Origin: an uncultured Gemmatimonadaceae bacterium
GTDB taxonomy: Bacteria; Gemmatimonadota; Gemmatimonadetes; Gemmatimonadales; Gemmatimonadaceae
NCBI GenBank assembly: GCA_963781585.1
Contig: CAWAGQ010000011.1
Span: 128,001 to 192,000, forward strand
Direction: 5' to 3'
Length of the DNA stretch: 64,000 nt
Shown here piece by piece: positions 46,871 through 48,116 of the stretch. Within the stretch, counting starts at the first letter, position 1; each line of letters opens with the position of its first letter. Below the pieces are notes generated by a model, which had not been told where the DNA came from, made no database searches, and saw nothing but the letters and a program-made list of their open reading frames with translations. A program made the translations under genes and the position numbers.

Positions 46871-46942
46871 ACCGCGGAGGCCGCAGAGGACACAGAGGTC
46901 CGGCAGGCGGCGACAGCACGCCGGTGCAGCTCTCTGCGGCCT
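46871..46942. repeat. REP-like palindromic element interrupted by IS110 (remainder at 48088-48094)
   Basis: Left arm ACCGCGGAGGCCGCAGAG (46871-46888) is a 17/18 inverted match to the reconstructed right arm CTCTGCGGC-CT-CTGCGGT. Confidence 0.8.
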
Positions 46943-46948
46943 TGTATG

Positions 46949-47120
46949 TCTTCATTGAAGAGTGTTGGTTCGGGACGGCGGCAGCTCGATCATCGTGGCC
47001 GGGGCGTACAGAGCCCGTCGCAGAGTAGGAGCGCCGCCCCACCGATCGCTCGAAGCCCGAACAGCTACCTGGGTCGACGAGAACCCGCATCTTGCAAGGC
47101 AGGGCGCGCGCGATCCCAAC
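46949..47120 (+). ncRNA. IS110 bridge RNA (target-binding and donor-binding loops)
   Basis: Two stem/internal-loop/stem domains whose loops contain TCGTGGCC and CGCAGAG (target) and ACAGCTAC and CAAG (donor). The RNA ends are approximate. Confidence 0.85.
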
Positions 47121-47134
47121 GCGGAGTGCCACAG

Positions 47135-48070
47135 ATGTCCTACGTGGGGATTGATGTCAGTAAGGCGACCCTCGACGTCGCCGTGCATGCGGGGGCGACG
47201 CAGCAAGTGCCCAATGACCCCGCCGGCTGGGCGCGCCTCATCACGCACCTCCGGACCGTGGAGGCCGCGCTGGTCGTGCTCGAAGCCACCAGTGTCTACC
47301 ATCGGGGCGTGACCACGGCGCTCGTGACGGCGGGGATCCCGGTCGCGGTGGTGAACCCGCGCCAGGTGCGCGAGTTCGCGCGCAGCACGGGGCAGCTCGC
47401 CAAGACGGATCGCCTGGATGCCGCCGTGCTCGCCCGCTTCGCCGCCATGGTGCGCCCCACGCCCCGACCGATTCCAGACGACGCCACGCAGGCGCTGGCG
47501 GCGCTCCTGGAGCGCCGCCGCCAGCTCCTCGAGATGCTCGGCGCGGAACAGAACCGGCTCGCCGTGGCGCGGCCCGAGGTGCGCGCCAGTGTCCGGCAGG
47601 TCCTGCGCACGCTGGAGAAGGCGTTGGCGGCGACGGACGCTGACGTCGATCGCTGGATCCGGGAGAGTCCCGTGTGGCGGGCGGAGGAGGCGCTCTTGCG
47701 CAGTGTGCCGGGCGTGGGGCCGCAGACGGCGCGGTTGCTCATCGCCGCCCTCCCCGAGCTGGGGCGCCTAACGCGTCGCGAGATTGCGGCCTTGGTGGGC
47801 GTGGCCCCGCTCGCCTGCGATTCCGGCACGCTGCGCGGGCGCCGCCGCTGTTGGGGCGGACGCCGGCACGTGCGGGCCGTGCTGTACATGGCTGCGCTCA
47901 CGGCCAGTCGCTGCAATCCCGTGCTGCGGCCGTGGTATCGCCAGCTCCGCGCGGCGGGCAAGCCGGTGAAGGTCGCCCTGACGGCGTGTATGCGTCGGCT
48001 CCTCACGACCCTCAATGCCATGGTGAAAACGCAAGCGGCGTGGCGTCCGCCCGTCGCAATTGTTCCTTGA
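47135..48070 (+). CDS. IS110-family DEDD recombinase (311 aa)
   Basis: [36 protein letters not shown], and DSG carrying the putative catalytic Ser. Confidence 0.96.
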
Positions 48071-48116
48071 CTTTTAACACAGCTACTCTGCGGTGAAAAA
48101 GATTGCGGTGAAGAAA

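Follow-up and report, generated by a model that had tools for sequence, protein, structure and literature searches.

We describe here an IS110-group (IS621-type) element at positions 46941-48087 of the window (the whole 64,000-nt stretch of DNA that was analysed), which carries a bridge RNA in its left end followed by a recombinase gene, and which is very probably an intact, recently mobile insertion sequence working like IS621. Three copies of 1147 bp, identical throughout, lie at different loci of the 5.7-Mb genome (C11:174941, the copy in the window; C11:433051; and C7:211297), together with an internally deleted sibling of 404 bp. The same CT is found at the start and at the end of all four loci, the cores in the window being at 46941-46942 and 48086-48087 on the forward strand. 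In the same-genus genome G001, which is 64% complete and whose flanks are about 88-92% identical to those of the host, the orthologous sites of the three full copies are empty, with flanks continuous across one CT. A short core at both ends and scarless insertion, both traits of the IS110 family, are thus found in this element, and no long terminal inverted repeats were seen on reading the sequence of its ends. The boundaries and motifs proposed in a first-pass annotation made from the sequence alone were all recovered where it had placed them, and the four sets of identical cores and three empty sites confirm its delimitation of the element.

The insertion divides the target into a left part (positions 1-7, 46934-46940) and a right part (48088-48092, the REP-like arm to which it belongs ending at 48094), both of which are joined at the empty site of G001. 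The left donor (positions 1-7) occupies 48079-48085 and the right donor 46943-46947, all on the forward strand. The non-coding ends measure 192 nt on the left, correcting an initial figure of 190 nt, and 15 nt on the right; a long left end with an RNA and a short right end distinguish the IS110 group from IS1111 (PMC11208160). When the genome was scanned with our covariance model R1 (150 of 4595 candidates scored), the matches were the three full copies and the deleted sibling, with no further stand-alone bridge RNA beyond these four loci. On its left, 90 nt separate the element from the stop codon of a gene for a luciferase-like monooxygenase (45714-46850, forward strand); on its right, a convergent gene for an M14 carboxypeptidase (48117-50861, reverse strand) has its stop a short way beyond the element. 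The region upstream (44650-46850) consists of an ATP-grasp (RimK-like) gene and then the monooxygenase gene, which is SfnG-like and luciferase-type, both scoring under the equivalog cut-offs.

The recombinase, 311 residues long (47135-48070, forward strand), comprises the DEDD RuvC-like domain PF01548 (E 8.5e-27) and the Tnp domain PF02371 (E 2.8e-17), and it scores 218.9 bits against NCBIfam NF033542, with a cut-off of 140. Its only two matches in the PDB are IS621 and ISCro4. Residues D7, E50, D92, D95 and S230, as well as Y251, M252 and L255 of the wedge, align with the IS621 residues named in PMC11208158. The reading frame is complete and every catalytic residue is present, so that the element was rightly called intact; the emphasis on a compact protein does not stand, as 311 residues fall inside the range of 300-460 published for IS110 recombinases (PMC11208160).

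The bridge RNA is predicted at 46955-47115 on the forward strand, with an approximate 5' end and a match to R1 at 46967-47112 (the training set of this model included the sequence of the window itself). It would form two modules, each made of a stem, an internal loop and a stem and containing conserved A and G residues, as in RNAs of the IS621 type. The target-binding loop (46977-47038) has an outer stem 46977-46987/47029-47038 with a bulged A46983, an inner stem 47002-47005/47013-47016 and the conserved G46988 and G47017, the A and G being invariant in all 35 aligned rows. The donor-binding loop (47044-47115) is built from the stems 47044-47049/47110-47115, 47055-47058/47102-47105 and 47071-47074/47083-47086. 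Across 35 aligned left ends, 97.7% of the 748 stem cells pair, against 33-48% in slid controls, and two-sided changes occur in 14 of the 22 stem pairs, a result reached by none of 500 shuffles; the stem GATCGC/GCGATC was left out of this count. The donor-loop stems vary less, with two-sided changes in two of the four pairs of each. The predicted two-loop structure is therefore supported by covariation, and the nested stems first read from one sequence show the expected compensatory changes. The single-sequence fold of the left end is indistinguishable from shuffles (z = -0.15), so the structure rests on comparison: of the fold-and-align check that had been suggested, folding alone did not single the structure out and alignment succeeded. 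In that fold, pair probabilities reach 0.85-1.0 for the target-loop stems and 0.22-0.37 for those of the donor loop, and the left guide is paired to the right one. Where RNAs of the IS621 type have a 5' accessory stem-loop, the fold predicts only a 4-bp hairpin (46950-46960) and, around the target loop, a weak helix, both outside the pair count. A search of Rfam returned no real match, its three weak hits lying far under the gathering scores.

Within these loops, the guides occupy the positions expected for an IS621-type RNA, all on the forward strand. The left target guide (46993-47000), inside a 13-nt loop strand (46989-47001), matches its own left target at five of eight positions; two more form wobbles and position 2 is mismatched, in agreement with the count first reported. 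A register one base further 5' was rejected (three of nine matches at the window site), and the register adopted is backed by the relatives L191 and L195 (7/8). The right target guide (47019-47025), of 7 nt, spans the core plus positions 10-14; the left donor guide (47061-47068) matches 48079-48086 at all eight positions. The right donor guide (47089-47098) is discontinuous when read against the pairing scheme of IS621 (PMC11208158): AU at 47089-47090, three looped-out bases, G47094 as a wobble and CAAG at 47095-47098, its AT being conserved. Next to the right guides stand the handshake dinucleotides, as defined for IS621 (PMC11208158): UA in the target loop (47026-47027), complementary to donor positions 6-7, and GC in the donor loop (47099-47100), complementary to target positions 6-7 at the window site. 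The positions and matches of the four guide segments known from the first-pass annotation were reproduced; what it had missed were the two handshake dinucleotides, the split of the right donor guide, the putative junction promoter and the REP-like hairpin target. Among 20000 dinucleotide shuffles of the left end, an 8-nt donor guide arose 19 times and both guides together never; the 7-nt right target guide is present in 1412 (7%), and for that reason this match is weak on its own.

Evidence that these segments act as guides comes from relatives, in which they follow the insertion site. A first set of 109 loci gave 68 with both ends, grouped in 39 clusters of which 34 were parsed, with one end set by hand; the 41 loci dropped were 13 partial reading frames, 24 lacking an end motif, two lacking a hit and two from an unpublished genome. 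A second set of 91 further loci, 55 of them parsed, contributed 38 new clusters. Each cluster was represented by one member, and the sites were permuted 10000 times among the elements. In the right target guide, the five bases outside the core were paired at 160 of 170 positions in set 1 and 185 of 190 in set 2 (permuted means 62 and 61). For the left target guide, with the best of three registers allowed in observed and permuted data alike, 189/272 and 229/304 positions matched (means 138 and 148), and for the left donor guide 236/238 and 250/266 (means 207 and 216). No permutation reached the observed pairing for any of the three guides in either set. The first handshake base of the target loop pairs with donor position 7 in 34/34 and 36/38 clusters, and that of the donor loop with target position 7 in 34/34 and 33/38. 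Covariation of the second handshake base is unconvincing in both sets (1619, 5635, 198 and 9425 of 10000 permutations), and the right donor guide, being nearly invariant, matches and cannot covary. These figures carry some bias: the ends of relatives were picked by donor-end motifs, which in part imposes the conservation of core and donor; the elements, being kin, are not independent observations, and the permutation counts consequently overstate the effect; and the loops of six of the 72 clusters were mis-parsed. Even so qualified, the co-variation of guides and flanks proposed as a check is present in both sets, and together with the boundaries it upholds the original assignment to the IS621-type architecture. 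A fully paired 7-nt right guide is usual among these relatives, occurring in 33 of the 38 clusters of set 2. In L193 and L194 (G076 and G315), the left donor guide has G at position 7 where the end of the element itself carries A, and pairing of the handshake base is lost in L194, which suggests that guide and end are drifting out of step.

By analogy with IS621 (PMC11208160, PMC11208158, PMC13626964), the ends of the element would join into a circle, building across the junction a sigma70-type promoter from a putative -35 box (48067-48072), which overlaps the stop codon, and a putative -10 box (46945-46950), which overlaps the right donor (the two together spanning 46943-46950). The hexamers lie 17 nt apart only in the joined ends, the -10 box is a weak match, and no promoter match was found in the linear locus. 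From this promoter a bridge RNA of about 160-180 nt would be made, whose target and donor loops would be bound by a recombinase tetramer and would pair with each strand of the target and of the donor, both 14 bp long; cleavage beside the CT core through S230 would then be followed by strand exchange aided by the handshake bases. Whether the circle of IS621 is excised or copied is disputed (10.64898/2026.08.31.748434), and three copies identical over 1147 bp fit both routes. Contigs of three sequencing runs (X1-X3) yielded short pieces of the element, with neither a circle junction nor coverage of the left end, a result that speaks neither for nor against the circle.

Against this explanation stand the imperfect left guide, the pairing of the guides with each other in the naked fold and the weak donor-loop stems, and two other readings have to be weighed. 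The notion that the guide matches are coincidental and that the protein itself recognises the repeat draws on the 7% of shuffles of the GC-rich left end that contain a 7-nt match; it is extremely improbable, as across 72 clusters the matches keep their places in the structure while their sequence follows the target, set 1 alone offering 24 different right guides in 34 clusters, and comparison of guides with sites has largely refuted it. The element might also have been active until recently and now be silent or defective in a way invisible to sequence, through weak expression or guide self-pairing. The self-pairing fold, the existence of decayed siblings and the outcome of a screen in human cells, where 18 of 72 orthologues gave product (10.1101/2025.05.14.653916), point in that direction; the identity of three full copies at different loci, the intact reading frame with all its catalytic residues and the complete handshakes at the window site make it unlikely.

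What the element targets is a degenerate, REP-like inverted repeat of the host; each of the four copies lies in a repeat of this kind, one arm of which is the target. At the window site the partner of the target arm is the upstream arm (46871-46888, forward strand): the reconstructed empty site is predicted to fold, as DNA, into a stem of about 17 bp between the two. At the three intact sites, seven, eight and six of the eight positions of the left guide pair when wobble is allowed, and five, six and five when it is not. Its U residues at positions 1 and 4 fall on C/T positions of the repeat (position 4 is C in 8 of 16 units and T in the other 8), and the U and G of this guide would read the C/T and G/A variants of the repeat by wobble, with the 7-nt right guide carrying most of the strict target specificity. 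In the genome, 1523 sites pair fully with the right guide, and five of them also with the left one (wobble allowed), two of these five being occupied. Full pairing of the right guide, C at position 7 and six or seven of seven matches to the left guide are found together at 50 sites. Of these, five are REP-like by eye, three of them occupied; none of the other 45, which by eye lie outside repeats and match at least as well as the site in the window, is occupied. Guide pairing alone thus leaves the location of all four copies in the repeat unexplained, and the preference is due either to an aid from the hairpin, as reported for ISPpu10, or to the purging of insertions in genes.

That the target is chosen by guide pairing and the DNA hairpin of the repeat together, as for ISPpu10 (10.64898/2026.03.19.712850), is a possibility that we regard with some doubt. 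Besides this precedent and the difference in occupancy between REP-like and non-repeat sites, it would account for the inverted partner arms of the empty targets and for the position of the core, in the predicted stem at three of the four sites and just outside it at the fourth; the longer guide strand of the clade to which the element belongs might then have been adjusted to targets of this kind. The same pattern, however, follows from selection against insertions in genes, and the stems found here are long-range, between arms 40-70 nt apart, whereas that of ISPpu10 is a local stem of 5 bp. Moreover, loop length and repeat targeting are only loosely coupled, since L202, L197/L213 and L200/L214 hit similar repeats with strands of 10-11 nt. 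Several observations concern the repeats themselves. The array at the C7 copy adjoins a gene for a 128-residue PD-(D/E)XK nuclease of PF13366 (L217:958-1344), a family which we take to be GxxExxY and for which a literature search gave unrelated matches only. In G001, a remnant reduced to the left core with some 44 nt of left end (C14:65268-65314; L198, about 1501-1547) lies one repeat unit away from the unit filled in the host genome; it stops at an internal CT equivalent to 46985-46986 of the window and runs directly into the right target, which would fit the scar of a one-sided (half-match) excision. About 1 kb with a long open frame (C17:193694-194692; L230) stands just upstream of an empty repeat in G001 and is absent from the host genome.

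The deleted sibling (C11:113270-113673, reverse strand, outside the window; L216:771-1174) retains the first 149 and the last 262 bp of the element (89% and 95% identical), two parts that overlap by 7 nt. It keeps both ends, the left donor guide and the whole target loop, which has a different left guide, and it is devoid of the right donor guide, the enzyme and the catalytic residues. It lies near a methylated-DNA methyltransferase gene, at a site with no exact empty counterpart in G001, which lacks a larger block of 553 bp, and it may have inserted while still intact. Since the two loops used by IS621 come from separate RNA molecules (PMC11208158), the intact element could mobilise the sibling and in turn borrow its specificity: the sibling would be a target-loop-only helper that adds, in trans, a further choice of target, and the pair would make up a naturally split bridge RNA. 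With wobble allowed, the intact guide matches the site of the sibling at eight of eight positions and the sibling's own guide at six, and at the site of the intact C7 copy the guide of the sibling matches at seven and the copy's own at six. The differences amount to one or two bases in a degenerate repeat, at one locus each, and we hold such a helper to be very unlikely. Non-autonomous IS110 modules (PMC12288879) and partial elements (10.64898/2026.08.14.744561) are known, and no target-loop-only remnant appears in the titles or opening lines of abstracts of the papers found on truncated or non-autonomous bridge elements.

The likeness to IS621 extends to a left-end RNA with the target loop before the donor loop, CT cores, conserved bulged A and G residues, a split right donor guide, handshake dinucleotides, the DEDD and Ser residues, the hydrophobic wedge, a REP target and at least one wobble in the left guide; a promoter across the junction may be a further shared trait. 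The two differ in that about one third of the protein is identical (by hand count from the alignment; 311 and 326 residues), in the natural right target guide, of 7 nt here and 4 nt in IS621, and in the loop strand around the left guide, with 4 nt before and 1 after it against 1 and 2; donor and target are also different, and the element has complete handshakes at the window site. ISCro4 (IS622; 10.1101/2025.05.14.653916; PDB 9t56) shares the architecture and the 14-bp recognition (E 1.3e-35) and is as distant as IS621; it has shown activity in human cells. The nearest named insertion sequence among the best 40 of 2477 plasmid matches is the ISEc32 family, with 44% protein identity; of the plasmid loci compared (ISEc32 and three IS110s), the left end of ISEc32 matches R1 (40 bits, E 3e-8), although in a quick tree it falls outside the clade of the host family and its guides differ. 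ISPpu10 and ISPpu9 of Pseudomonas putida are, like this element, IS110s that target REP sequences, ISPpu10 having target hairpins of a different geometry (10.64898/2026.03.19.712850; PMC12288879). The ssr9 of ISPpu9 is described as an RNA-bearing non-autonomous module moved in trans (PMC12288879); our sibling, as a difference, keeps the target loop and both ends and is without the right donor guide.

Altogether, this element is, on good support, a new example of the type of RNA-guided recombinase described in 2024, with no new mechanism. A previous study analysed 5,511 target pairs and already noted longer natural right guides (PMC11208160), and 32,190 bridge RNAs have been scored elsewhere (10.64898/2026.10.21.760802). 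Our literature search found nothing joining IS110, Gemmatimonad and bridge RNA, and the supplementary tables of PMC11208160 or of the preprints may list the element or its clade. In the quantitative assay of a published orthologue screen, one of 72 was above the detection limit (10.1101/2025.05.14.653916). Annotated, recently mobile, from a GC-rich host and endowed with a natural 7-nt right guide and complete handshakes, the element is a ready editing candidate, one of very many. Bridge recombinases serve as genome-editing tools, and the clade offers a natural set in which to look for effects of repeat hairpins or of longer guide strands on targeting.

The quick tree comprises 69 proteins and places the recombinase in a group of eight (SH-aLRT 99), seven from genomes of the host's own family and one from an entry titled Gemmatimonadaceae. 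Seven of the eight have A at donor position 7, and in six the strand of the target loop on the left-guide side measures 13-14 nt; it is 10 nt in 50 of 66 cleanly parsed clusters, and 13 nt also in L137, outside the group. In L191, the nearest relative (72% identical), both target guides, left and right, and the handshake base of the donor loop have changed in step with the site of that element. The same 7-nt left donor is common to five other clusters (among them L001, L191, L195 and L201; L140 differs by one base), so that donor specificity belongs to the clade and the idea that the element has one of its own has to be abandoned. The 3-4 extra loop bases resemble a short duplication and are probably looped out: an extension of pairing past position 1 gave no consistent match, by eye, in seven long-loop elements. 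The proposal that left-guide mismatches are selected because they prevent pairing with the right guide on tandem-repeat targets found no support, matches at positions 1-4 averaging 2.2 in five clusters with such targets and 2.34 in 61 others (the six mis-parsed clusters out of 72 being left out). Among the left ends of L060, L064-L066 and L068, one Deinococcus copy has an insertion between the two loops, and Dehalococcoidia copies have tandem short repeats around the start codon.
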